Shown here in pieces: positions 18,441 through 29,460 of a stretch of 31,317 nt of DNA. The stretch is taken from contig JBHLLG010000032.1 of the NCBI GenBank assembly GCA_048885925.1, forward strand, positions 1 to 31,317, read 5' to 3'. Position 1 is the stretch's first letter; each line of letters begins with the position of its first letter. The translations under genes and the position numbers were made by a program. Under the pieces are notes generated by a model. The model worked only from the letters and a program-made list of their open reading frames with translations. It had not been told where the DNA came from and searched no databases. Origin of the DNA: Candidatus Hermodarchaeota archaeon. GTDB taxonomy: Archaea; Asgardarchaeota; Lokiarchaeia; Sigyniarchaeales; SOKP01.

Positions 18441-19274
18441 TTAGGTTGTTAAAGATTTTACTGCCTCTTGAATGGAAGTAGGTATATTTTTATTAAACAA
18501 TTTTTCTTTGTTAAGTTTTTTAAAGATTGAATAAATGATAGGTTTATTTAACCTTAAATTTTGAAAATTAACACCATTTATGACATTTTCACTAGATCCA
18601 TACTCGATAATCGCTCCATTCTTCATTAAAATTATATGATCTGATAAAGGTAAAATTAAATCAAGTCGATGTTCACTAACCATAATAGTTATATTTTTGT
18701 CCTGTCTGATCTCCTGTAATAAACGGATTATTTTTCTTGCCATATAAGGATCTAATAAGGCAGTCGGCTCATCTAGTATTAAGATTTTAGGTCTTAGTAC
18801 CAAGATAGACGCAATAGCAACTCTTTGTTGTTCTCCACCACTCAATTCAAAAGGTGCCTTATCTAAAATATGTTCAATTTCAGTTAAAGATGCACTCTCC
18901 ATTATTCGGTTTGAAATTTCTTTAGGTGATATGCCTAAGTTTTCTAAACCAAAAGCAATTTCATGTTCTACATTCATTGAAATTAACTGATTTTCTGGAT
19001 TTTGAAAGACTATTCCTACTTCTGTTGATAAATTGGCAATAGAAGTTTCAATAGTATCTTTTCCATTAACAATAATTTTCCCCTTATAAAAACCGGAATA
19101 GAATTGAGGAATCAAACCATTCATACATCTAATTAATGTGGTTTTTCCACTCCCAGTTTCTCCACATAATAAAATAAATGTATTATCCTCAATCTTTAAA
19201 TTGATGTTATTTAAAGCATAATCATCATTTCCTTTATATCTATAATAAAAATTTATAAAATTTACTAAATCCAT
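18441..19274 (-). CDS. ecfA1: ECF transporter ATPase A
   Basis: GETGSGKTT, FQNPENQ, LSGGEQQR, ILILDEPT, EHR. Confidence 0.9.
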   Translation of the reverse strand: MDLVNFINFYYRYKGNDDYALNNINLKIEDNTFILLCGETGSGKTTLIRCMNGLIPQFYSGFYKGKIIVNGKDTIETSIANLSTEVGIVFQNPENQLISMNVEHEIAFGLENLGISPKEISNRIMESASLTEIEHILDKAPFELSGGEQQRVAIASILVLRPKILILDEPTALLDPYMARKIIRLLQEIRQDKNITIMVSEHRLDLILPLSDHIILMKNGAIIEYGSSENVINGVNFQNLRLNKPIIYSIFKKLNKEKLFNKNIPTSIQEAVKSLTT

Positions 19275-19335
19275 GATAAGGATTAATCTGTGTAGATCTT
19301 GTTTTTTATTAATTTATAATTACTTAAAATCTAAA

Positions 19336-20340
19336 TTATAAATATTGTTTAATTTTCTCAATTATTTGTGTTATAATTAAATTACTTTCTTTATCGCTAG
19401 TAATAGAGGCAGCACCATCGTGTCCTCCACCATTTCCTTCGTATATCTCGGATATTTCTGCTAAGATTTTTCCTAAATGTAATCCAGTCTTTAAACAAAA
19501 TCCTTTTTTGGCTCTTGTATTAATTCGATAATGATCTCCTTCTTTTGAGAGAACAATAGCAATATCAAATCCCAGCTTTATTAACATTGTTGCAACACTT
19601 GAACCAAAACTGCTAACATTTGTAATACCTATTAAATAATTTTTTTCGCGAATTAGGTTAACTCTTTGCATTCCCTTTATTCTCGCTATTTTTTCTGAAA
19701 TATCTGTATCACTTTTAAGAAGATAAAAAACATCTTGAATGTCTATATCATCACACATCAATTTAACTACATTTTTAATACTTTTATTATTGGCATGCTT
19801 GAAAAAGCCTGTATCAGTTATTATTGCTGCAATAATTAGATTTTTTAATGGTATTGTTAAATGAGTGTTAGTGGATTCAAATAAATCTAATATTATTTCT
19901 GTTGTAGATGAATAGTTATCAAGAATAAAATTAAATGGATTTAAATTAGCTTCAGAGCTATCTAAAAAAAAATGATGATCTATAAAAATATAAGGTAGTT
20001 TTAAATGTGAAATATTTGTATTATTTTCTAATTTAACTTGATTTAAATTATTTGTATCTACTATTAAAAGGAGATCACATTTGGAACCATTAAAAGTTTT
20101 ATCAAAATTAAGATAAAAATCGGGAAATTTTTCAGAAAACCTTTTTATATAATCTTTTGTAGGTTTTGAAAGTTCCGAAAAATATATTGAGATCTCTTGA
20201 TTTTCAAGGATTTGATTTAAAAAATATTTCAAAGTAAAGCAGGAAGCTAAACCGTCAATATCCACTAAATCATGGGTTAAAATTGTTATTTTTTTATTTT
20301 CTAAAAAAGATAAAAAAGTTTCAAATTTAGATTTCAACAT
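19336..20340 (-). CDS. DHH/DHHA1 family phosphoesterase (NrnA-like)
   Basis: THDLVDIDG, IVDT, IDHH, TDTGFF and GGGHDGAAS motifs; usual neighbour of pfdB in archaea. Confidence 0.9.
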   Translation of the reverse strand: MLKSKFETFLSFLENKKITILTHDLVDIDGLASCFTLKYFLNQILENQEISIYFSELSKPTKDYIKRFSEKFPDFYLNFDKTFNGSKCDLLLIVDTNNLNQVKLENNTNISHLKLPYIFIDHHFFLDSSEANLNPFNFILDNYSSTTEIILDLFESTNTHLTIPLKNLIIAAIITDTGFFKHANNKSIKNVVKLMCDDIDIQDVFYLLKSDTDISEKIARIKGMQRVNLIREKNYLIGITNVSSFGSSVATMLIKLGFDIAIVLSKEGDHYRINTRAKKGFCLKTGLHLGKILAEISEIYEGNGGGHDGAASITSDKESNLIITQIIEKIKQYL

Positions 20341-20357
20341 AAAAATATCAAATAATT

Positions 20358-20711
20358 TTATTTTTGAAATTCAGCTTCGAGAGATTTTCTTAATGTTTCA
20401 ATCTGGTTTCGAACACGATCTTCTTTTTGCTTTAAAGTTTTTAACCGCATCTCATAAGTGACTTTTAAACTTTTTTTCTCATCTAATAACTTATTCTTTT
20501 CACTTTTAACTAAAATTCCTCCTATTGCTTTATAAACTGTGTCATCAGGATTTATTTTAGATAATTCCTCAATTGCTAATTCAGTATCCCTTAATGTACT
20601 CTCTATTTGTAATCTTTGAGTTGTTATAAATTCATAAGATTGCTGTAATTTATTTAGATTTATTAATTTGTTTCTTTGTTCTTCATTTAAATTTTCAAGA
20701 TTTATTGACAT
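20358..20711 (-). CDS. pfdB: prefoldin beta subunit
   Basis: Coiled coils flanking the VYKAIGGILVK hairpin; superoperon position. Confidence 0.92.
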   Translation of the reverse strand: MSINLENLNEEQRNKLINLNKLQQSYEFITTQRLQIESTLRDTELAIEELSKINPDDTVYKAIGGILVKSEKNKLLDEKKSLKVTYEMRLKTLKQKEDRVRNQIETLRKSLEAEFQK

Positions 20712-20775
20712 AATTAATCAAATAAACGCGAGTTCTTTTATAATTTAATTTAGAATGTAAATAATTTATTTTTTT

Positions 20776-21048
20776 CTATGTATTATCAACTATTTTCAAG
20801 CTATTTGTTAAAACTTTCCCAAAACTTATAATTTCATTAATAGAAGCACGAAAAGAAGTAATATCATTACTTTTTATCTTAAAAATGAGAAAATTTTCAT
20901 TTTTTTTTTCCATAGAGACTTTAGATCTTTTAGTTTGTAATTTTTTAAATTCTGGTAAAAAAGCATCGTAAGAAATATCTCTTAATTTAGAAGTAGTAAA
21001 TTTTAGTTCTATTATTGAATTTATAGAAAAAGAATTAATTTGATTCAT
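20776..21048 (-). CDS. pcc1: KEOPS complex subunit Pcc1
   Basis: LPE...KRSKV...IKSNDITSFRASINE pattern; lies between rpl37ae and pfdB. Confidence 0.85.
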   Translation of the reverse strand: MNQINSFSINSIIELKFTTSKLRDISYDAFLPEFKKLQTKRSKVSMEKKNENFLIFKIKSNDITSFRASINEIISFGKVLTNSLKIVDNT

Positions 21049-21335
21049 TATTCTTCTATGACATCTAATTCTCTTTGTTTTCGTTTTGCTATTCTGAAAG
21101 ATTCTGATCCTCGAGGTGTTTCTATATAATATGCTCCTCCTGTAAAACGCGCATTACATTTTTTACAGTACCAAATGCCTGTTGATATTCGATATACAGT
21201 ACCCTGTGATTCACATTTAGGACATTTAATATCTCCTTTCATCTTCTCTAAAATTGAACGAGTTCTTTTTCTCAATGTACTTCCATAGCGAGCCGCATAA
21301 CGCCCTGTGATACCCACTTTCTTAGTTTTGCCCAT
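21048..21335 (-). CDS. rpl37ae: 50S ribosomal protein L37Ae (eL43)
   Basis: TKKVGITGRYAARYGSTLRK; CPKC...GIWYCKKC; FTGGAY. Confidence 0.96.
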   Translation of the reverse strand: MGKTKKVGITGRYAARYGSTLRKRTRSILEKMKGDIKCPKCESQGTVYRISTGIWYCKKCNARFTGGAYYIETPRGSESFRIAKRKQRELDVIEE

Positions 21336-21366
21336 TTTAATCTAAATTAGTATTGAATAGTTGATG

Positions 21367-21377
21367 TTATATAAAAA
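21367..21377 (-). promoter_or_regulatory. putative archaeal TATA box for rpl37ae
   Basis: Minus strand TTTTTATATAA about 32-42 nt upstream of the rpl37ae ATG. AT-rich background limits specificity. Confidence 0.4.
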
Positions 21378-21532
21378 CTATAATAAACTATAAATTTTTC
21401 TATATTAAAAGAAATTTATTCAATACTTCAGTTTTAAATTAGAAGTTCAAAAAGAGAGTTTTTATATTTCTCAAAATTACAAAATTAAATTATAATTTAT
21501 TAAAATTAAGCTTTTAATTGAAAGTGTAAGAA

Positions 21533-24280
21533 ATGATTAAAAAAAACTCCCTTATTGTTAATTTAAGAGTCATTAAGCAAAAAACTAAGGAAGTAGGAAC
21601 AAAAGCTGCAAATCTTGGTGAACTCATCCAAAATAAATTTTATGTGCCTGATGGATTTGTTATAACCACTAGAGCATATGAGTTATTTCTCAAAAATAAT
21701 AATCTTATGGGAGTTATTGAAAATCTACTAGAAAATCTTGAATACAATAATTTAGAATCATTAAACCAGTCTGTAGACAAGATTCAAAATATGATTATGA
21801 AAAGTGAGTTGCCAAGGGAATTAACAGATGAAATTAAAACAAGACACCAACAGTTTTCTTCATACGGTATAGCCATTAGATCCTCTGCTACTGCTGAAGA
21901 TTTACCAAATGCGTCTTTTGCTGGTCAATACGATACTTATTTAAATGTAAGAGAAATTGACCAAATACTTTATTATATAAAACGATGCTATGCCTCATTA
22001 TGGTCAAATCGAGCAATTATTTATCGATATAAAAATAAGATTCCACATAATCTAATTAAAATGGCGGTTATTATTCAGAAAATGGTTGATGCAAAATCTG
22101 CTGGCGTTTTATTTACAATAAATCCAATAACGTCTAATAATGATGAATTATTAATTGAATCTAATTTTGGGTTAGGAGAATCAATTGTTTCGGGAAAAAT
22201 AAACCCAGATCAGTTTATTATAAAGAAAATTAAAAGAGGCTTACTGAAAATTATAAGTAGACTGATTGGAAAAAAAACAATAGCTGTTTTTCCAAAAAAT
22301 ATAAAGGATGAAGGTGGAATAACATATAATGAATTAAATGACGATTTAATTAATCAAACTTCCTTATCTGATGGTGAAATTCTCCAAATTGCAAAAATAG
22401 GTCTCCAAATAGTAAAAAGTTTTCATGGAATCCCTCAAGACATTGAATGGGCTTTTGATCAAAAGAATACAATTAATATATTACAAACTCGCCCAATTAC
22501 AGCAATAAAAGCTGATCTCAAAACTCCTAAAATTTTGTGGACTAGAGGCTATTCAGATGACTATTGGAATGATAATGTTAGTCCATTATTTTTTGAACTT
22601 TTAGGGGATCAGATAACAAAAGTTGTAAATATAGAATTAAACGATATCATGGGTTATAAAAGAATGGACACTCAATTATTAAAATTATACAATGCTCATG
22701 TCTATTTTAATCTTAATGTAATAAAAAGAAAAATCGAAAATGAAATCCCAAAATTCATGAGAAATGAAGATATACTAAATTATTTTCCAGAAGGTTCAGG
22801 ACCTTATGGGAAAAAAACAATGAAAGAACTTCCTTTTCACCTAATAAAACGGATAGTTGCAGAATTACGTATAATGCTTCATGATCCTAACGGATCCATG
22901 TCTAAAACTGCTGAAGCGTATGATAACTGGAATCAGATACAATTCGAACCTTATTGTAAGTTATTTGATAAGAAATTAGAGGTTATAAAAAAGACGAATA
23001 ATTTAGCTGATTTATTGGACTTAGCTAAAGATTTAGATAAAATTATGATTGATCATTTTCGGTTAATTCGATATGGGATTCCTGTCCACAATATTGGCAT
23101 GAACTTATTGATTCAATATCTACTTACTCGTTTTTTAGGTAAAGAGGCATGCTCAAGATTTTATCCTATTCTTGTTTCTGGCCTTAATCATAAATTAACA
23201 GAAACAAACGATCAAATTCATTATCTAGCCTCCCTTATTAATAAATCTAGCTATCTTAAGAACCTTATAAGTAATAATAAATCAGAAAATGTTTATAAAA
23301 AACTTTTAGAAGAAAAAGAACCTTCAATCAATAAATTTCTAAAAGTATTTGAACATTTTTTAGAAATTCATGGTGATCGTGGCTTTACTAGAGAAATTTA
23401 TTACCCTAGATGGAGAGAACCACCAATGATAAATTTATTTGATATATTCAAATCATTAATAACAGATCAATGGCAGGAATTAGATATCAAAAAAGCCAAA
23501 AATTTACATAAAAGAGAGCTAATTGAAAAGATTGTTGAATCTAAAATTAGATCCCAACGTTTTGGACTACTAAAATGGAAATTCTTATATATAATTTTAA
23601 AAAATAGTCGAAAATATATCATATTTCGTGAAAACCAGAGATTTAATTTAGATAAATGGATTACAAGAAACAGGAACGTATATTTGGAAATTGGAATAAT
23701 ATTTAAAAAAAGAGGACTTATACCAGATGAAAACTTGATCTTCTTTTTTGGTAAAGAGGAAATAGAAAAATTAGCATTAAAAGAATATAATAAAGAAAAA
23801 ATTGAAGAAATGTCAATTGAATTAGAAAAAAGATATAAACTTTTTCTACAACACGTAAATAAATTACCACCTAAATTTCTATTAGGATCTCGGGAATTTA
23901 ATGATGTTTTAAAGAATAAAAAGGAAAATAAAATCTTCCGTGGTATCCCAGCTAGTCAAGGAATTATTACTGCACCTATAAGAGTCCTTGAGAATATTGA
24001 TCTTATTTCTACTGTGCGATCAGGAGAGATTCTCGTAGTATCTCGAACAGATCCCGGTTGGACTCCTGTTTTTTCGAAAATAGCAGGGTTAATCACAGAG
24101 ACTGGGGGAATTTTATCTCATGGTGCTGTTATTTCAAGAGAATATAGTATTCCTGCTGTTACAAATATAGTAAATGCTTGTCATATCTTCAAAACGGGTC
24201 AAATTATTAAAATTGATGGTTTCAATGGCATTGTTACTATACAGGAAAAAGTTAAGGTGAATAAAAATTGGAATCGATAA
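21533..24280 (+). CDS. PEP-synthase-related dikinase-type phosphotransferase/ligase with RPH/PigC/YvkC domain order (ATP-grasp, substrate domain, C-terminal phospho-His swivel)
   Basis: VGTKAANLGEL, RSSATAED..ASFAGQYDT, QDIEWA, QTRPIT; central FLEIHGDRG...PRWRE; C-terminal TDPGWTP and GGILSHGAVISREYSIPAV. No PEP/pyruvate TIM barrel follows. Confidence 0.85.
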   Translation: MIKKNSLIVNLRVIKQKTKEVGTKAANLGELIQNKFYVPDGFVITTRAYELFLKNNNLMGVIENLLENLEYNNLESLNQSVDKIQNMIMKSELPRELTDEIKTRHQQFSSYGIAIRSSATAEDLPNASFAGQYDTYLNVREIDQILYYIKRCYASLWSNRAIIYRYKNKIPHNLIKMAVIIQKMVDAKSAGVLFTINPITSNNDELLIESNFGLGESIVSGKINPDQFIIKKIKRGLLKIISRLIGKKTIAVFPKNIKDEGGITYNELNDDLINQTSLSDGEILQIAKIGLQIVKSFHGIPQDIEWAFDQKNTINILQTRPITAIKADLKTPKILWTRGYSDDYWNDNVSPLFFELLGDQITKVVNIELNDIMGYKRMDTQLLKLYNAHVYFNLNVIKRKIENEIPKFMRNEDILNYFPEGSGPYGKKTMKELPFHLIKRIVAELRIMLHDPNGSMSKTAEAYDNWNQIQFEPYCKLFDKKLEVIKKTNNLADLLDLAKDLDKIMIDHFRLIRYGIPVHNIGMNLLIQYLLTRFLGKEACSRFYPILVSGLNHKLTETNDQIHYLASLINKSSYLKNLISNNKSENVYKKLLEEKEPSINKFLKVFEHFLEIHGDRGFTREIYYPRWREPPMINLFDIFKSLITDQWQELDIKKAKNLHKRELIEKIVESKIRSQRFGLLKWKFLYIILKNSRKYIIFRENQRFNLDKWITRNRNVYLEIGIIFKKRGLIPDENLIFFFGKEEIEKLALKEYNKEKIEEMSIELEKRYKLFLQHVNKLPPKFLLGSREFNDVLKNKKENKIFRGIPASQGIITAPIRVLENIDLISTVRSGEILVVSRTDPGWTPVFSKIAGLITETGGILSHGAVISREYSIPAVTNIVNACHIFKTGQIIKIDGFNGIVTIQEKVKVNKNWNR

Positions 24281-25233
24281 CTCATCTGGATCTTAGTACA
24301 GACCATCCCGAATGGAATGAATCTTATTATTTTGTTTTTTATGACAAGGAAAATAATCTTGGAGGGATGACTAGATTAGGATTTAAGCCAAATAAACTAG
24401 AAGGAATGACTTTTTTCTTTCTATTTTTGCCAAATGGTTCAGCTGCGGGATATTTTAGAGAAAAAACTGTAAAGGATTACAATAAAACTCTGAAAGTAGG
24501 TGGAGTAAGTCATGTTTATCAAAATAATTCTAAATGGAAGTACCTATTTCAAGGGAAAATGATTTTTGTGAAAAATCCTGAAGATTTACCTAAAGTACGT
24601 GAAGAACCCGGATTAATTAGTACAACTAAAAAAGTATTAATAGACATCTCGTTTAATCCAATAAATGATACATATGAATATAGTGATTATATGACACCTG
24701 AATCATTAAAGATTGGAAAGAAAGCTGGTGATAAACATTGGGAACAAATAGGTATCTTATTTGGAAATATTCAAATAGGTAATGACAATTATGTAATAAA
24801 AGATGTACTAGGTCAAAGAGATCATACTTATGGAGTTAGAGATTGGACTAACGTAGGTAACTGGTTATACTATGTGGTATGGTTTGATAAAACTTTAGCA
24901 ATTAATCCAGCAGCAATAATTACTGATGACGGAAGTATGTCTACAGGAGGATTCTTATTTAAAGATGGAGAAAATATCCCTTTAAGAACAATAGAAATAG
25001 TTGATCAAAGATATCGAAAAGATGGGGTGTTCCCAATAAGTTCAGAATTGAAAATTATAGATAAATTAAACAATAAACACATCTTGAAAGCAAAAGTTGG
25101 ATCAATCATCCCAGTTCCTTTTATAGATAGTGAAGGTAATAGTTCAATATTGGTTCAGTCTATGGGGAAATTTGAATTGAATGGGAGAAAAGGTGGTTAT
25201 GGATCATTTGAAACACTGCGAAAAGTTAAATAA
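24268..25233 (+). CDS. lipocalin/tocopherol-cyclase-like (AttH/CrtC-like double beta-barrel) protein
   Basis: WNESYYFVFYD...G.TRLG.KPN, HWEQIG and RDHTYGVRDW motifs; beta-rich. TTG start 7 nt after a GGTGA SD; overlaps the upstream gene by 13 nt. Confidence 0.62.
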   Translation: MESITHLDLSTDHPEWNESYYFVFYDKENNLGGMTRLGFKPNKLEGMTFFFLFLPNGSAAGYFREKTVKDYNKTLKVGGVSHVYQNNSKWKYLFQGKMIFVKNPEDLPKVREEPGLISTTKKVLIDISFNPINDTYEYSDYMTPESLKIGKKAGDKHWEQIGILFGNIQIGNDNYVIKDVLGQRDHTYGVRDWTNVGNWLYYVVWFDKTLAINPAAIITDDGSMSTGGFLFKDGENIPLRTIEIVDQRYRKDGVFPISSELKIIDKLNNKHILKAKVGSIIPVPFIDSEGNSSILVQSMGKFELNGRKGGYGSFETLRKVK

Positions 25234-25341
25234 TAAAGATTTAATGAAATCAATAATCTTAAATAACGAAATAATGAAGAAAATTTTTTAAAAGACTGCT
25301 AAAAAATAAATTATTTAAATAATAAAAATTCTTGTTGAAAA

Positions 25342-26175
25342 TTATTCCATTTTAGCTAAATATTGTTGAAAATTTAAGTCAGTTCTTAATTTATTACTAA
25401 TTTCTAAAGATTTATTACCAAGCATTTTTATCTCGTCGATTGAAAAGGTCGCTGCTCCACTTTTTTGAATTGATGTAATTTTATCTTTGGTGGTTGATAT
25501 TGAAATTTTACCATCGCAAACTAATTCTTCGGGTAAATTAGGATCTAAAAAAATAATATCATCAATTTTTCCATAAGTAGTGATCAAGGGTAATTCATTT
25601 ACAATGTCTTTTCCGGTCAAGTACTTTCCAGTCCATTCAATCTCCCCTTTATCTTCATTCCAAATACCTTCAGGGATATGTGCTGACATTAATGATGTTA
25701 AAGCACTTACACCCCCTGCATCAATTAAATTACCAGAATAATTGATAACATACATATCTACAAAAAGTATATAGACAGCTTTATTTTCTTTGATACAAAG
25801 CTTATTGGTTTGAACACAATCTGCATGTCTGATTCCACGATCAACCACACGTGCTAATTCAATTGATTGCTCATCTGGAGGACCTCTTTCAAATAGTGGA
25901 GATGCTAATGGGAGTAATTCTGCCATAACAGTACATACACCTTCATCAGGAAGATCTGGAAAAGGCTCACCAACTTCATATTTTAAACCTGTTATTATCC
26001 TTGTATCTCCTAATAAAACGTCAGCGGAGCCTTCTGCTGAGGATATAATATCACTTTTAATATTGAACTCACGAAAATCCCACAAACCTCTTCCATCGAG
26101 TCTTTCTTCTTTTTTCAAATTTGAAATTATATAATCTTTTTCAATTTTTGATACAATTCGCTTAACATCCATCAT
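25342..26175 (-). CDS. rrp42: exosome complex subunit Rrp42
   Basis: RLDGR, AEGSADV, EPFPDLPDEG, FERGPPDEQSIELARVVDRGIR, SIQKSG. Confidence 0.96.
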   Translation of the reverse strand: MMDVKRIVSKIEKDYIISNLKKEERLDGRGLWDFREFNIKSDIISSAEGSADVLLGDTRIITGLKYEVGEPFPDLPDEGVCTVMAELLPLASPLFERGPPDEQSIELARVVDRGIRHADCVQTNKLCIKENKAVYILFVDMYVINYSGNLIDAGGVSALTSLMSAHIPEGIWNEDKGEIEWTGKYLTGKDIVNELPLITTYGKIDDIIFLDPNLPEELVCDGKISISTTKDKITSIQKSGAATFSIDEIKMLGNKSLEISNKLRTDLNFQQYLAKME

Positions 26176-26177
26176 TT

Positions 26178-26948
26178 TTATTGATCACCTTTATTATCTT
26201 TCTGAGTTTCTTCATGTAATTTTAAATATTTACTTTTTAAAGTCTGCAATTGAATTTGGTAAATTTCTTTCAATGCATCTTTTGCAATATCCAAAAATTC
26301 ATTCATTTCATCTAAATTCATATCTCCATCAAATTGTAATAGTGATATTTCCTCGTTATACCACGTGATTGCGATAGGGAAATCTGCGTCTCCTGCTTTA
26401 TCTTCAATTCCAGAGAGATCAATCACTTTCTTTCCATCAATTTTTCCTACAGCAATTGCTGAAACTAAACTTCTCATAGGAATCCCCGCATCTGCTAAAG
26501 CTAATGCTGCTACAGTAGTACTTGCACATCTTGTCCCTCCATCTGCATCCATAACATCAATAAAAACTTCAAAACTCGTACCGGGATAAAGTTCAAGAAA
26601 AAGAACAGGTTCTAAACAATCTGCTACAATCATAGAAATTTCTTTTTCACGACGCCCAGGAGCGGGTCTTTTTCTGTCAAAAACAGAAAATGTGGCCATT
26701 CTGTAAAAAACTCTTAAAATTCCCTTATCTGATTTTGCTAAATGGTGAGGATGAACCTCTCTTGGACCGTATACAGCAGCAAAAATTTTGTTATTTCCCC
26801 ATTCAAGATACGCAGATCCATCTGCATTTTTTATGACACCAACTTCCATTTTAATAGGTCTTAACTCTTTTGTGTCTCGACCATCGAGTCTTTTTCCATC
26901 TTTACGAAATAAAATTTCAGGGTATTCATCTTTAATTATTAACGGCAT
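26178..26948 (-). CDS. rrp41: exosome complex phosphorolytic exonuclease Rrp41
   Basis: RLDGR..ELRP, ADGSAYLEWG, VYGPREVHP, RREKEIS, ADGGTR, ALADAGIPM, ED....D.P. Confidence 0.96.
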   Translation of the reverse strand: MPLIIKDEYPEILFRKDGKRLDGRDTKELRPIKMEVGVIKNADGSAYLEWGNNKIFAAVYGPREVHPHHLAKSDKGILRVFYRMATFSVFDRKRPAPGRREKEISMIVADCLEPVLFLELYPGTSFEVFIDVMDADGGTRCASTTVAALALADAGIPMRSLVSAIAVGKIDGKKVIDLSGIEDKAGDADFPIAITWYNEEISLLQFDGDMNLDEMNEFLDIAKDALKEIYQIQLQTLKSKYLKLHEETQKDNKGDQ

Positions 26949-27734
26949 TTATTTAATACCTCTTTTCTTTTTTTCATTTATTATATATTCTTGCATTCTA
27001 TCTGTTAAACCAACAGTATGCGCTTCGGAAGCAATTTTATAAATAGATTCAATAAGTAACCTTTCATGAGCAATATCTTCACCTTTAAGCCAGATTCGTC
27101 CATTCTGCGTAACAAAAATATTACATTTTGTTAAATTTTTTAACATTTTTATCATTGAACCCTTCCTACCAATTACTCTTGGAATCTTGGGTGGATCTAT
27201 CGTAATTACAATACCACCAATTTTTTTACCTAAGTATTTCCCAACAGTAGTTAATTCTGGTTTATTTAAGCGATCTGCTGAGAGAATTTTTACAATTAAA
27301 ATATCCCCTATATCAAATTTTTCGGTACCCGCTTCTTCTCTATCACCACCGCCTCCTCTGAATCCTCTTAGCTTTGTTTTTTTAATTGTGTTCTTAGGTT
27401 TAAGTTGCCCATAGTCTTTAGCATTTATATCACATTTATATTTTACTGGATTTTTATCAACTACTAAAGCTATAACTTTATCTCCAGGGCGAGGAGTGTA
27501 AAAGCCTCTTAAAGGAATTACATTCACATAATTCTTTTTAATTTGTTTTAAGCCAATATTCAAAGAAATTATTTTATTTCTCTCTTTATTTAAGATTGTA
27601 CCTCTTCCAGGTAAAAAGTTTTTTACATCTTCAGTTAAAACTTCTCCGGGAACAACAACTTCTCTAGATGTATCCTCATCTTCATCTTCGAAATCATCGA
27701 ATTCCTCATCTATAGATTCCTCATCTTCTTCCAT
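26949..27734 (-). CDS. rrp4: exosome complex RNA-binding subunit Rrp4 (S1 + KH)
   Basis: VVPGE, YTPRPGDKVI, KH motif KIPRVIGRKGSMI, NGRIW, EAHTVGLTDR. ATG at 27734 follows a GGTGA SD; the track GTG at 27746 is part of that SD. Confidence 0.95.
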   Translation of the reverse strand: MEEDEESIDEEFDDFEDEDEDTSREVVVPGEVLTEDVKNFLPGRGTILNKERNKIISLNIGLKQIKKNYVNVIPLRGFYTPRPGDKVIALVVDKNPVKYKCDINAKDYGQLKPKNTIKKTKLRGFRGGGGDREEAGTEKFDIGDILIVKILSADRLNKPELTTVGKYLGKKIGGIVITIDPPKIPRVIGRKGSMIKMLKNLTKCNIFVTQNGRIWLKGEDIAHERLLIESIYKIASEAHTVGLTDRMQEYIINEKKKRGIK

Positions 27735-27823
27735 AATGTTACTCACCTTTAGTTTAATTAATACTTATTTTACTAACCTATACAAAAAATAATACAAATA
27801 GAGGATAATTAAAGATTTTTAGG

Positions 27824-28615
27824 TTATGATTTTAAAATTTTTGTTTGAACTCTTCCGTGGGTCAACTTATTTAATTTATCAAGTAATTCCATCTGTAATC
27901 CTGCAGGCAAATTTACAACTGCCACCCAGGAACCATCAGATTGCCACTCTTCTTTCTTAATTTGAGCATATTGAGCAACAATATTATAACCCTTAGCTGT
28001 AAAAGCTGTAGGGATTTTGATAGCCATTTCTACTTGCTCTATTCTAATAGGAATAATTGCTTGAATGCTTTTAACAATATCATCAACTTGTTCTTCGGCA
28101 TTTCTCATTAAGTCTATTTTAACCTTGGCTTCTTCAATTGCCTTTTCTATTCTTTGATAAGGATGAGGTTTTTTGTTTTGTGGATTTATAGCATTTTTGC
28201 TTATGATAGTTATTATTTGTTTTAATTTCTTCTCTCTTTCTTCTTCTCTTTGGGTTTTTGTCCATTGTACTTCTCCTTCTAAAAGAATATGAGCAGCAAT
28301 GATTGAGCCTTCTACAGTATTAAATACTGCTTCCATATCTCCATCTGTTGCTTTTTTACCTCTTCTTAAATCTTCAAATACTGTAAAACTCTCAAAAATG
28401 AGTTCTAAATCAACTTTTCGATCATTCATTAACTCTTCCACAGTCAATCGAGATTTTTCTTTACCTTCTTTTAATCGTTTATTAATTTCTTCTCGAATAA
28501 GTTTTTTAGCTTCCCATGCTTTTTCAGGATCCATTAACATTTCAAAGACCCTTCCTGCTTTTTCAATACGCCCAATGATGAAACCGCCCAAATCAATTCT
28601 TGCCCTATCAATCAT
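27824..28615 (-). CDS. sdo1: ribosome maturation factor SBDS/Sdo1
   Basis: FEMLMDP, AINPQNKKPHPYQRIEKAIEEAKVKID, IPIRIE, EEWQSDGSW; superoperon position. Confidence 0.95.
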   Translation of the reverse strand: MIDRARIDLGGFIIGRIEKAGRVFEMLMDPEKAWEAKKLIREEINKRLKEGKEKSRLTVEELMNDRKVDLELIFESFTVFEDLRRGKKATDGDMEAVFNTVEGSIIAAHILLEGEVQWTKTQREEEREKKLKQIITIISKNAINPQNKKPHPYQRIEKAIEEAKVKIDLMRNAEEQVDDIVKSIQAIIPIRIEQVEMAIKIPTAFTAKGYNIVAQYAQIKKEEWQSDGSWVAVVNLPAGLQMELLDKLNKLTHGRVQTKILKS

Positions 28616-28743
28616 ACTAGAATTTCACAAAATAACTGATTGAATTATCTCGATTTTTGTACTTTTCAAACCTTTTGTCTTTCTGTTAAACGATAAATAT
28701 AAAGGGATTTACCTTGATCTTATATATATGCTATTTAAGGAAG

Positions 28744-29460
28744 CTATAACATATTTAATAATTCTTCCTTTTCCTCCAAACTTAATAGCTTAAAAGTTTT
28801 ATCCTCCTTTAATATAAAAGCTATATCACATGTATTTTTACTTAGATTATCACCCATCAATTCTTTTAATGTTCTTAAGGGTAATAATTTTAATTCTTCA
28901 TCATTCATATCTTCTTTATAATGTTCCTCAAGGTAAGCTCTTGCTTCCGTGGCTCCAGAGCCAATAGCAAAAGCTTTATAACCCCAACTAGCGCCCGAAG
29001 GGTCCGTTAAATAAAGACTGGGGCCATTTGGGTCAATTCCAGCAATCAGAAACGACACTCCGAAAGGTCTTACTCCAGCATTCTGTGTAAAAACTTGTTT
29101 ATATTCGCAAATATTTAGCGTACTGTCCTTTACAGAGATTTTTTCATCATAATTTAAAATATTTATTTGAGCTTGAACCCGGGCTCTGTCAATTAAGACG
29201 CGAGCATCAGCCGTAAGTCCTGCAATGGCCACCCCAATATGATCATCAATTTTAAAAATTTTTTCTGAACCAGTACCTTGTTCTTGAAGTTCAGAGCTTT
29301 TCTTTTCAACCGCAAACACTACAGAATTCTTATTCCTACACACAATTGCAGTTGTACCTCGTCGGACGGCTTCAATTGCATATTCAACCTGAAAAAGTCG
29401 ACCTTCAGGTGAAAATTGGGTAATTGCCATATCATAACCTCTTCCTGCTTGCTGAAACAT
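28744..29460 (-). CDS. psmA: 20S proteasome alpha subunit
   Basis: GYD..ITQFSPEGRLFQVEYA, GLTADAR, RPFGVS, TDPSG, AIGSG. Confidence 0.97.
   Translation of the reverse strand: MFQQAGRGYDMAITQFSPEGRLFQVEYAIEAVRRGTTAIVCRNKNSVVFAVEKKSSELQEQGTGSEKIFKIDDHIGVAIAGLTADARVLIDRARVQAQINILNYDEKISVKDSTLNICEYKQVFTQNAGVRPFGVSFLIAGIDPNGPSLYLTDPSGASWGYKAFAIGSGATEARAYLEEHYKEDMNDEELKLLPLRTLKELMGDNLSKNTCDIAFILKEDKTFKLLSLEEKEELLNML

Follow-up and report, generated by a model that had tools for sequence, protein, structure and literature searches.

A dikinase of rifampin phosphotransferase type genetically coupled to a DUF7065/DUF7064 two-barrel protein in archaea: a candidate phosphorylate-then-eliminate dehydration system

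The gene pair and the architecture of its kinase

The window analysed here is a stretch of 31,317 nucleotides (nt) of contig JBHLLG010000032.1 from a Candidatus Hermodarchaeota archaeon, and the system in question is a pair of overlapping genes within it, the first encoding a kinase of 915 residues (aa) with a C-terminal phospho-histidine domain and the second a two-barrel protein of 321 aa, hereafter the partner (Table 1). The two reading frames share 13 nt (24268-24280), and the GGTGA Shine-Dalgarno sequence ends 7 nt ahead of the TTG codon of the partner, a start that is credible because 19 aligned homologues (Asgard-only alignment A1) have the N-terminus ME(P/S)ITH in common. Both open reading frames (ORFs), their overlap and the ribosome-binding sequence had been described in an earlier note made from the letters of the window, and the ORF listing and direct reading of the sequence bore them out. 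The motifs named there are present as well, namely LSHGAVISRE in the kinase (aa 861-870) and WNESYYF (aa 16-22), HWEQIG (aa 157-162) and RDHTYGVRDW (aa 184-193) in the partner.

Table 1. Coordinates of the gene pair in the window and of partner remnants in three genomes of the same genus.
Feature	Position	Strand	Basis or remark
Kinase, His-swivel dikinase of RPH architecture, 915 aa	21533..24280	+	ATG-started ORF; Pfam, NCBIfam, Foldseek
ATP-grasp (PPDK_N) nucleotide-binding domain, kinase aa 19-328	21587..22516	+	PF01326, E 4.9e-94; PDB sequence matches
Helical middle domain, Rph_4th type, kinase aa ~336-800	22538..23932	+	Helices of the model, PF27448 on homologues, conserved motifs; presumed phosphoryl-acceptor site
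PEP-utilizers mobile (swivel) domain, kinase aa 829-899	24017..24229	+	PF00391, E 2.9e-21
Codon of the phospho-carrier His863	24119-24121	+	Within the swivel domain; invariant in 27/27 orthologues
Gene junction	24256..24280	+	Sequence read directly; GGTGA Shine-Dalgarno 24256-24260, partner TTG 24268, kinase TAA 24278-24280
Partner, DUF7065 + DUF7064 two-barrel protein, 321 aa, candidate phosphoester C-O lyase	24268..25233	+	TTG-started ORF; Pfam, model, Foldseek, VIA, profile
RDHTYGVRDW motif, partner aa 184-193	24817..24846	+	Family alignments A1 and A2; HMMER alignments to two 25-PSL sequences
Partner remnants in three same-genus genomes	L094 6862-7092; L095 6848-7057; L096 6954-7305		

The domain order of the kinase is that of rifampin phosphotransferase (RPH), with PPDK_N followed by a helical domain of Rph_4th type and a C-terminal PEP-utilizers swivel and without a pyruvate barrel; Pfam gave no PEP-utilizers_C barrel match anywhere in the 915-aa protein. 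An AlphaFold model based on 27 orthologues (alignment A3; pLDDT 82.6, pTM 0.64) is nearly all helix between aa 351 and 773, and Foldseek matched it over its whole length to rifampin phosphotransferase RPH-Lm (5hv1; E 3.7e-43, 940 columns, 24% identity), whereas PEP synthase 2ols aligned over just 333 columns, in the ATP-grasp domain. The best solved relatives by sequence were the Listeria entries 5hv1, 5fbs and 5hv2 (E 9e-88), identified as rifampin phosphotransferase by the titles in the fold search. PDB sequence matches of the ATP-grasp part comprised the ATP-grasp domains of RPH-Lm and PpsA, and HpeI (9goj) matches this domain also. In A3, His863 (within GGILSHGAV) was invariant in all 27 sequences and the middle-domain motifs RGYSDDYWND, RYGxPxHxxGMNL and FRENQRFNLD were strongly conserved, and PF27448 (Rph_4th) was annotated on 94-100% of the members of the nearest Atlas clusters of the kinase and, between PPDK_N and PEP-utilizers, on all 17 fused homologues described below.

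Among the NCBIfam models, solely the PRK06241 'YvkC-like' models aligned with the kinase over its whole length (aa 15-905), PRK06241.1-3 scoring 432.6 bits against a cut-off of 945. The kinase failed the PpsA equivalog models (415.7 against 598 bits for NF005057 and 401.6 against 739.75 bits for TIGR01418), which aligned at the ATP-grasp and swivel parts only, and it did not reach the cut-offs for rifamycin-inactivating phosphotransferase (NF041857, 374.8 against 999 bits), PigC (NF052631, 376.3 against 1300 bits) or RedH (NF052632, 332.5 against 1350 bits). With the PpsA cut-offs failed, the pyruvate barrel missing and a whole-length fold match to RPH-Lm, the earlier assignment to an RPH/PigC/YvkC architecture rather than to PEP synthase stands, and on sequence and predicted structure we regard it as sound; the kinase is an equivalog of neither RPH nor PigC. 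A separate, canonical PpsA-like frame of 975 aa is found in the same genome (contig C58, 4043-5374, minus strand), with the swivel directly following the ATP-grasp domain, and a further ATP-grasp fragment lies at a contig end (C146, 4233-4778, minus strand).

Genetic coupling and distribution of the pair

A pattern scan using one genome per species returned 128 candidate stretches, of which 104 encoded relatives, and the best 80 of these 104 were used. These loci span Promethearchaeota/Lokiarchaeia, Hod-, Thor- and Atabeyarchaeia as well as metagenome-assembled genomes (MAGs) of Bathyarchaeota, Brockarchaeota, Thermoproteota and Methanomethylicia. By tblastn, the C-terminus of the kinase was located at most 200 nt upstream of the partner and on the same strand in 67 of the 80 loci, upstream with an insert of 0.4-2 kb in seven, and directly downstream of the partner in two. 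The kinase was not seen in four loci, which are uninformative on the pairing, three of them cut by contig ends (L031, L041, L051) and one rearranged (L060). The possibility entertained in the earlier note, that the two genes would be neither adjacent nor fused in other genomes, thus did not hold, given the 67 adjacent loci and 17 fused proteins.

Co-occurrence was scanned in 300 Asgard genomes, including 90 of high quality. The partner profile matched 101 of the 300 (31 of the 90) at E <= 0.001, a full-length partner orthologue (E <= 3.5e-137) was present in 58, and the middle domain of the kinase (aa 331-800) was detected in 60 at E <= 1e-10, with 59 strong matches and one weak. Both were found in 57 genomes, and all three exceptions involve contig ends: the partner is 574 nt from the end in G164, a partner fragment stands beside the kinase in G161, and the kinase itself is at the end in G203. 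Genomes of the same genus as the window that do not carry the pair (G177, G275 and G222) keep, in the slot between Rrp42 and L37ae, a remnant of the partner corresponding to about aa 201-321 and 44-62% identical to it, with no kinase (Table 1), and these three remnants are a clean in-situ loss of the module.

The two proteins also occur as one polypeptide. An exhaustive search of representatives with the partner gave 473 matches at E <= 0.001, and the best 150 of these include P0125, a kinase-barrel fusion of 1178 aa in which the barrel occupies residues 886-1172. Identity is 39% between its kinase part and the window kinase (888 residues) and 32% between its barrel, which retains every motif, and the partner; swivel and barrel, fewer than 10 residues apart, are joined where the boundary between the two genes would lie. 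A region-restricted search recovered 17 fused proteins of 1119-1228 aa, all carrying PPDK_N, Rph_4th, PEP-utilizers, DUF7065 and DUF7064 with the kinase first; organism names are attached to four of them, each from a MAG of Thermoplasmatota or Thermoplasmata. A different, independent fusion is represented by two high-GC metagenome proteins, P0172 (801 aa) and P0178 (766 aa), in which a diverged PPDK_N ATP-grasp domain is joined by a low-complexity linker rich in Pro, Ala, Gly and Glu to DUF7065 and DUF7064, without a swivel or an Rph_4th domain. The earlier note had mentioned, for invertebrates, fusions with an N-terminal barrel. None was present among the best 150 of the 473 representatives, in a search made without a eukaryote protein set, and the literature yielded nothing usable on invertebrate 'PEP synthase-like' fusions; apart from the two high-GC proteins, the fusions that we found are archaeal (Thermoplasmatota), and their barrel is C-terminal, not N-terminal. 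The motif named along with them, HYEQ...RDHS.G.R.W, is the exact consensus of the bacterial DUF7065 family. Taken together, adjacency, co-occurrence, co-loss and fusion bear out the proposal of a two-gene unit, and we conclude that kinase and partner are a real functional unit. A complex prediction with alignments of kinase aa 330-915 and the partner returned a score of 0.00 and no answer on an interface, and weighs neither way.

Inserts between the two genes, comprising one or two genes each, were seen in some loci of Promethearchaeota (L019, L026, L031; L046, L047, L064; and L024, L041). Their products are a homologue of Rce1-like CAAX proteases, an S33 alpha/beta hydrolase or, from the opposite strand, a second DUF7065 paralogue, and the protease and the hydrolase are membrane- or lipid-flavoured neighbours. 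The loci with inverted order (partner, then kinase) come from the Hodarchaeota MAGs L054 and L079 and are flanked by an AMP-binding acyl-CoA-ligase-like gene and a family 4 glycosyl hydrolase.

The module is accessory, being present in about one fifth of the sampled Asgard genomes (58 of 300). Within the genus of the window, nine of 20 genomes had any partner match at E <= 0.001, and near-complete genomes without the module exist; in the phylum of the Brockarchaeota locus it is rare (10 of 301 genomes at E <= 1e-60). The sequences are nevertheless 47-77% identical across these archaeal phyla, and such identity points to a defined substrate and makes lateral transfer among sediment archaea probable. 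Since it is patchy in Asgard archaea and occurs also in TACK archaea and Thermoplasmatota, the module is no Asgard signature. In the window, the pair lies on the opposite strand within an exosome/proteasome superoperon (18441-29460), flanked by Rrp42, Rrp41, Rrp4, SBDS and proteasome alpha at one end and by L37ae, Pcc1, prefoldin beta and a DHH protein at the other, and the same setting was found in 38-39 of the 80 loci (L006-L055 and others). This setting is a position and not a functional link. A housekeeping role, for example in the mevalonate pathway, was considered on account of the identity of 60-77% and the position in the superoperon, and was ruled out by the near-complete same-genus genomes without the pair and by the deletion remnants.

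Several TACK loci (L070, 2045-10949; L069, L071, L081 and L085) carry a second, divergent DUF7065/DUF7064 paralogue, co-oriented with a conserved 392-aa protein without Pfam match, and in addition a stand-alone PEP-utilizers swivel protein of 116 aa and two ferredoxin-domain proteins (289 and 85 aa). The 392-aa protein was ruled out as a detached Rph_4th domain, with no relation to the kinase by BLASTP or hhalign, and a 465-aa neighbour was likewise ruled out as an ATP-grasp protein. This set may constitute a second, split system.

The partner family and its relation to 25-phosphosteroid lyase

The partner exceeded the Pfam cut-offs for both DUF7065 (PF23213, 42.6 against 27 bits) and DUF7064 (PF23212, 39.1 against 24.7 bits), the latter again in a whole-genome search, and DUF7064 had no match in any of 14 control genomes. 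It did not reach the cut-off of 150 bits of the NCBIfam Rv3169 family (NF053593), scoring 24.4 bits in a local match at aa 157-192. The homologues with E <= 0.001 numbered 413, and identity was 61-100% among the best 120 of these. We found no paper naming DUF7064 or DUF7065, the only mentions being of Rv3169 in tuberculosis genomics. In M. tuberculosis, Rv3169 probably has the APH-like Rv3168 as its neighbour.

As a single sequence the partner had no sequence match in the PDB. A model built on 72 family members (alignment A2) consists of two stacked beta-barrels (pLDDT 96.0, pTM 0.92), which agrees with the lipocalin/cyclase-like barrel predicted in the earlier note, the fold being the two-barrel, lipocalin-like one of AttH, cyclases and hydratases. 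The top Foldseek matches in the PDB were five chains of 25-phosphosteroid lyase (25-PSL; 9g2i, 9fzn and 9g4c; E 1.3e-14 to 1.4e-13, TMq 0.66-0.69), followed by putative AttH 2ich, the Diels-Alderases Fsa2, Phm7 and CghA, and kievitone hydratase; VIA-align superposed the partner on 25-PSL 9g2i with Z 26.2, an rmsd of 3.1 and 18% identity over 277 aligned residues. One Atlas look-alike cluster of the partner is automatically named 'putative AttH'. At the sequence level, the family profile A2 matched 25-PSL alone among 177,635 distinct PDB sequences (E 4.5e-24), and a profile of 51 distant, mostly bacterial-looking members (A4) matched it too (E 4.9e-25). AttH, CrtC and kievitone hydratase gave no match in the PDB at E <= 10 with either the partner or profile A2. 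Judged by these profiles, the partner and 25-PSL would belong to the same family and to different subfamilies.

The motif residues of the partner are mostly invariant or near-invariant across the family (A1 and A2), a degree of conservation far above chance in these alignments. Near-invariant polar residues in A2 are E18, S19, N42, H157, E159, Q160, R184, D185, R191 and E315, and W193 of RDHTYGVRDW belongs with R184, D185 and R191 among the near-invariant positions. Residues kept in 25-PSL are H6, Y20, Y21, F22, P41, N42, Q160, R184, D185, R191, GYG 310-312 and E315, and the position of E18 is D there. The identity of 25-PSL and its product complex are taken from the titles of PDB entries 9FZN, 9G2I and 9G4C. 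Between the two 25-PSL sequences deposited, D is replaced by N within GSRDRSWGVR, the Asn form being 9g4c, which holds phosphate and the alkene product. In the HMMER alignments, D185 of the partner aligns with the Asp that is Asn in 9g4c, and R184 and R191 with the flanking Arg residues; the choice of this variant for the product complex suggests that the Asp is catalytic in 25-PSL.

Bacterial members of the family were approached with the bacterial-type protein P0130, which matched 16 records of a plasmid collection, with at least 80% of its length covered in 11. Seven loci (L087-L093) were examined; H4 and H10, which nearly duplicate H3 and H9, were left out, as were H7 and H8, where the matched region lacked usable annotation. 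In four of the seven, from Pseudonocardia, Mycobacterium branderi, Cupriavidus metallidurans CH34 and Diaphorobacter, a kinase of APH or EcKL type is encoded directly upstream according to annotation or Pfam (APH, E 5.9e-44 and 3.8e-56; EcKL, E 5.4e-11). In two others, from Sulfitobacter and Variovorax, a 'phosphotransferase family protein' is annotated within about 3.3-5 kb, and near the Embleya gene none of the six ORFs scanned was a kinase. The barrel family is therefore tied to kinases of two unrelated folds, as expected if the shared intermediate is a phosphoester. The 25-hydroxysteroid kinase (25-HSK) of Sterolibacterium is a phosphotransferase of the APH type too (PMC8449060), and the steroid system would lead one to expect such kinases beside bacterial family members. 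The bacterial clusters are beta-oxidation-like, with AMP-binding ligase, acyl-CoA dehydrogenases, enoyl-CoA hydratase, MaoC and SDR genes, and suggest catabolism of hydroxylated lipids or side chains.

Proposed reaction, rival explanations and known systems

From the observed domain make-up, fold relationships and genetic coupling we infer, by analogy, two chemical steps, their order and a class of substrate: the pair would dehydrate a hydrophobic, probably isoprenoid, alcohol at the cost of ATP, first phosphorylating it and then eliminating the phosphate, a reading to which we give roughly even chances. RPH is reported to convert rifampin and ATP to phospho-rifampin, AMP and inorganic phosphate by way of its His swivel (PMC4844700). 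By analogy, ATP would bind in the ATP-grasp domain of the window kinase, its beta-phosphate would pass to His863 with release of AMP and inorganic phosphate, and the swivel would carry the phosphate to the Rph_4th-type domain, where the hydroxyl of a hydrophobic small molecule or lipid would be phosphorylated. In a second step modelled on 25-PSL, the DUF7065/DUF7064 barrel would take over the phosphoester and break its C-O bond, releasing inorganic phosphate and leaving an alkene, or else a carbocation that elimination then quenches. Overall, an alcohol, most likely a tertiary isoprenoid one, would be dehydrated irreversibly. The earlier note had supposed that the partner binds or transforms a hydrophobic substrate; this idea survives in refined form, in that homology to 25-PSL makes a phosphoester C-O lyase acting after the kinase likelier than a carrier or a cyclase acting before it.

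The steroid pathway of Sterolibacterium denitrificans supplies the energetic argument. There, 25-HSK, a 40-kDa 'phosphotransferase family' enzyme, converts ATP to ADP; the tertiary 25-phosphoester is reported to have an ATP-like transfer potential, and the reaction to be fully reversible with a Keq of 0.34 (PMC8449060). A C-O lyase, not identified at the time, was reported to eliminate the phosphate and give the delta-24 alkene (PMC8449060; PMC11061730). A dikinase, by spending two anhydride bonds, would draw forward and make irreversible the phosphorylation of a tertiary alcohol, which an ordinary ATP-to-ADP kinase leaves close to equilibrium. A tertiary isoprenoid alcohol is our best guess for the substrate because 25-PSL acts on the isoprenoid end of the sterol side chain, because hydratases of the AttH fold make tertiary isoprenoid alcohols, and because one of these, Hgs, makes hydroxylated glycerol dialkyl glycerol tetraethers (hydroxy-GDGTs) in archaea (bioRxiv 10.1101/2025.10.20.683597). 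A bolder version, which we think unlikely, is that the pair is a machine for remodelling archaeal isoprenoid lipids, in which the dikinase would place a monophosphate on a tertiary alcohol, for example in hydroxyarchaeol, a hydroxy-GDGT or a hydrated polyprenyl or quinone side chain, and the AttH-fold enzyme would ionise it to give an unsaturated or cyclised chain. If true, the pair would run the Hgs step backwards at the expense of ATP, in a monophosphate counterpart of terpene-cyclase chemistry, and would do so as a conserved unit in Asgard archaea, TACK archaea and, in fused form, Thermoplasmatota.

Several observations weigh against a phosphorylate-then-eliminate dehydratase. The VIA-align Z values for proteins of other chemistries are near-equal to that of 25-PSL (AttH 2ich 26.7; CghA, Fsa2 and Phm7 about 24; kievitone hydratase 22.8) and, being effectively tied, leave the chemistry of the partner undecided by fold alone. 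The Asgard-only profile A1 matched 25-PSL insignificantly (E 0.27), so that the Asgard clade is a separate subfamily, tied to 25-PSL by way of its fold and of the family at large. The near-invariant H157 and E159 of HWEQ are R and A in 25-PSL, and S19 is R; to judge from these alignments, a typical family member with H157 and E159 may catalyse a chemistry unlike that of 25-PSL, and the activity and substrate class proposed for the archaeal clade are carried over from relatives by analogy. No third gene accompanied the pair among the 868 clustered ORFs of the loci, and hence none that would make the alcohol. In the bacterial clusters the acyl-CoA dehydrogenases could be the eliminating enzymes, as in the Lva system. 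Such a division of labour is reported for ACAD10/11 (PMC11342911). Finally, the Sterolibacterium kinase is of another fold, and no lyase candidate gene was reported to lie near the kinase gene (PMC8449060).

Three other explanations have to be set against the dehydratase. The order of the two steps could be reversed, an AttH/CrtC/Hgs-like barrel hydrating an isoprenoid double bond and the dikinase then phosphorylating the tertiary alcohol, with a phosphorylated lipid or metabolite as the end product. This would account for the kinase association equally well, and it gains from the AttH 2ich match, which equals that of 25-PSL, from kievitone hydratase being in the same fold group, and from the Hgs hydratase reported in archaea (bioRxiv 10.1101/2025.10.20.683597). 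We hold it to be improbable all the same, since the family profile picks out 25-PSL and no hydratase at E <= 10, and genes and fusions alike have the order kinase, then barrel. We know of no use for a tertiary phosphoester as an end product. Such a compound would, from what is reported of the 25-phosphoester, be high in energy and labile (PMC8449060). Alternatively, the kinase might phosphorylate an alcohol or carbonyl oxygen as a leaving group, and the barrel might use its departure for a cyclisation, rearrangement or condensation. PigC and HapC, which share the architecture of the kinase (376 bits with the PigC model), are reported to condense two pyrroles (PMC13534948), the barrel fold houses the pericyclases CghA, Fsa2 and Phm7, and any extra chemistry could fall to H157 and E159, which the family conserves and 25-PSL lacks. 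However, PigC needs no barrel partner, the kinase scored far under the PigC and RedH cut-offs, nothing links the partner to the pericyclases at the sequence level, and no biosynthetic genes cluster with the pair at the examined loci, so that we consider this explanation rather improbable.

Lastly, the kinase could be an RPH-like phosphotransferase for resistance or detoxification, inactivating a xenobiotic or antibiotic that the barrel merely binds or delivers. The nearest solved relative is indeed an antibiotic kinase, and an accessory module that is patchy within a genus (9/20), repeatedly deleted and sparse in TACK (10/301) has the pattern of a niche trait. Set against this are the 374.8 bits of the kinase where the RPH model asks for 999, the near-invariant, enzyme-like polar residues of the partner, which would be superfluous in a passive carrier, and the 47-77% conservation across phyla, which fits a defined substrate; we therefore regard detoxification as highly improbable.

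What the system would mean follows from the standing of the partner family. DUF7065/DUF7064 is a large bacterial and archaeal family without an assigned function, and its one characterised member, 25-PSL, was not solved until 2026. Genetically, the family is tightly bound to kinases of two unrelated folds, the APH type in bacteria and the RPH-dikinase type in archaea, where it is even fused, which suggests that 'activated dehydration' by a kinase and a phosphoester lyase is a general, repeatedly invented strategy that reaches beyond anaerobic cholesterol degradation. The dehydratase reading offers a testable function for about a thousand conserved residues that are mis-annotated as 'PEP synthase' and 'hypothetical protein' in Asgard archaea, TACK archaea and Thermoplasmatota, and the locus points to sediment archaea having a hydrophobic alcohol in their metabolism or membranes. 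For biochemical work, the naturally fused proteins can serve as constructs as they are.

Compared with known systems, the window kinase shares with RPH-Lm (5HV1, 5FBS) the ATP-grasp domain, the helical Rph_4th acceptor domain and the C-terminal His swivel, at 20-24% identity in the full-length fold alignment, but RPH acts alone, whereas kinases of the window type are always paired or fused with a barrel. PigC, RedH and HapC have the same domain order and activate an oxygen to leave by phosphoryl transfer; they have no barrel partner, and their genes stand in pigment clusters. Split small-molecule dikinases offer a further comparison, phenylphosphate synthase being one of two; their substrates are phenolic, the phosphate is retained until a subsequent carboxylation or catabolic reaction, and they have no lyase of the AttH fold. 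The other, HpeHI of Rhodococcus, consists of separate PEP-synthase-like ATP-grasp and His-domain proteins and is reported to phosphorylate hydroxyls of hydrophobic aromatics (PMC12167813). On the side of the partner, the AttH-like hydratases CrtC, kievitone hydratase and Hgs have the same two-barrel fold (Z 22.8-26.7), make tertiary isoprenoid alcohols, which is the reverse of the reaction proposed here, and act on membrane lipids in archaea, but they give no sequence-level match to the partner and use neither ATP nor a kinase. The strategy of phosphorylating an alcohol and then eliminating is shared by ACAD10/ACAD11 and by class III/IV lanthipeptide synthetases, according to two reports (PMC11342911, PMC13504147), with folds unrelated to the pair and with acyl-CoAs or peptides as substrates. 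Closest in proposed logic are 25-HSK and 25-PSL of S. denitrificans, in which an alcohol is phosphorylated and the phosphate then eliminated to give an alkene. 25-PSL shares its fold and, by the family profiles, probably its sequence family with the partner and keeps the Asp of RD..WG.R, but it is only about 18% identical, is without H157 and E159, and comes from a bacterial host with a steroid substrate; 25-HSK is an ATP-to-ADP kinase of APH type, unrelated to the dikinase (PMC8449060). In conclusion, our preferred reading of the pair is a new form of dehydration by kinase and phosphoester lyase, one that relies on an RPH-type dikinase and that archaea have conserved and, in some cases, fused into a single protein.

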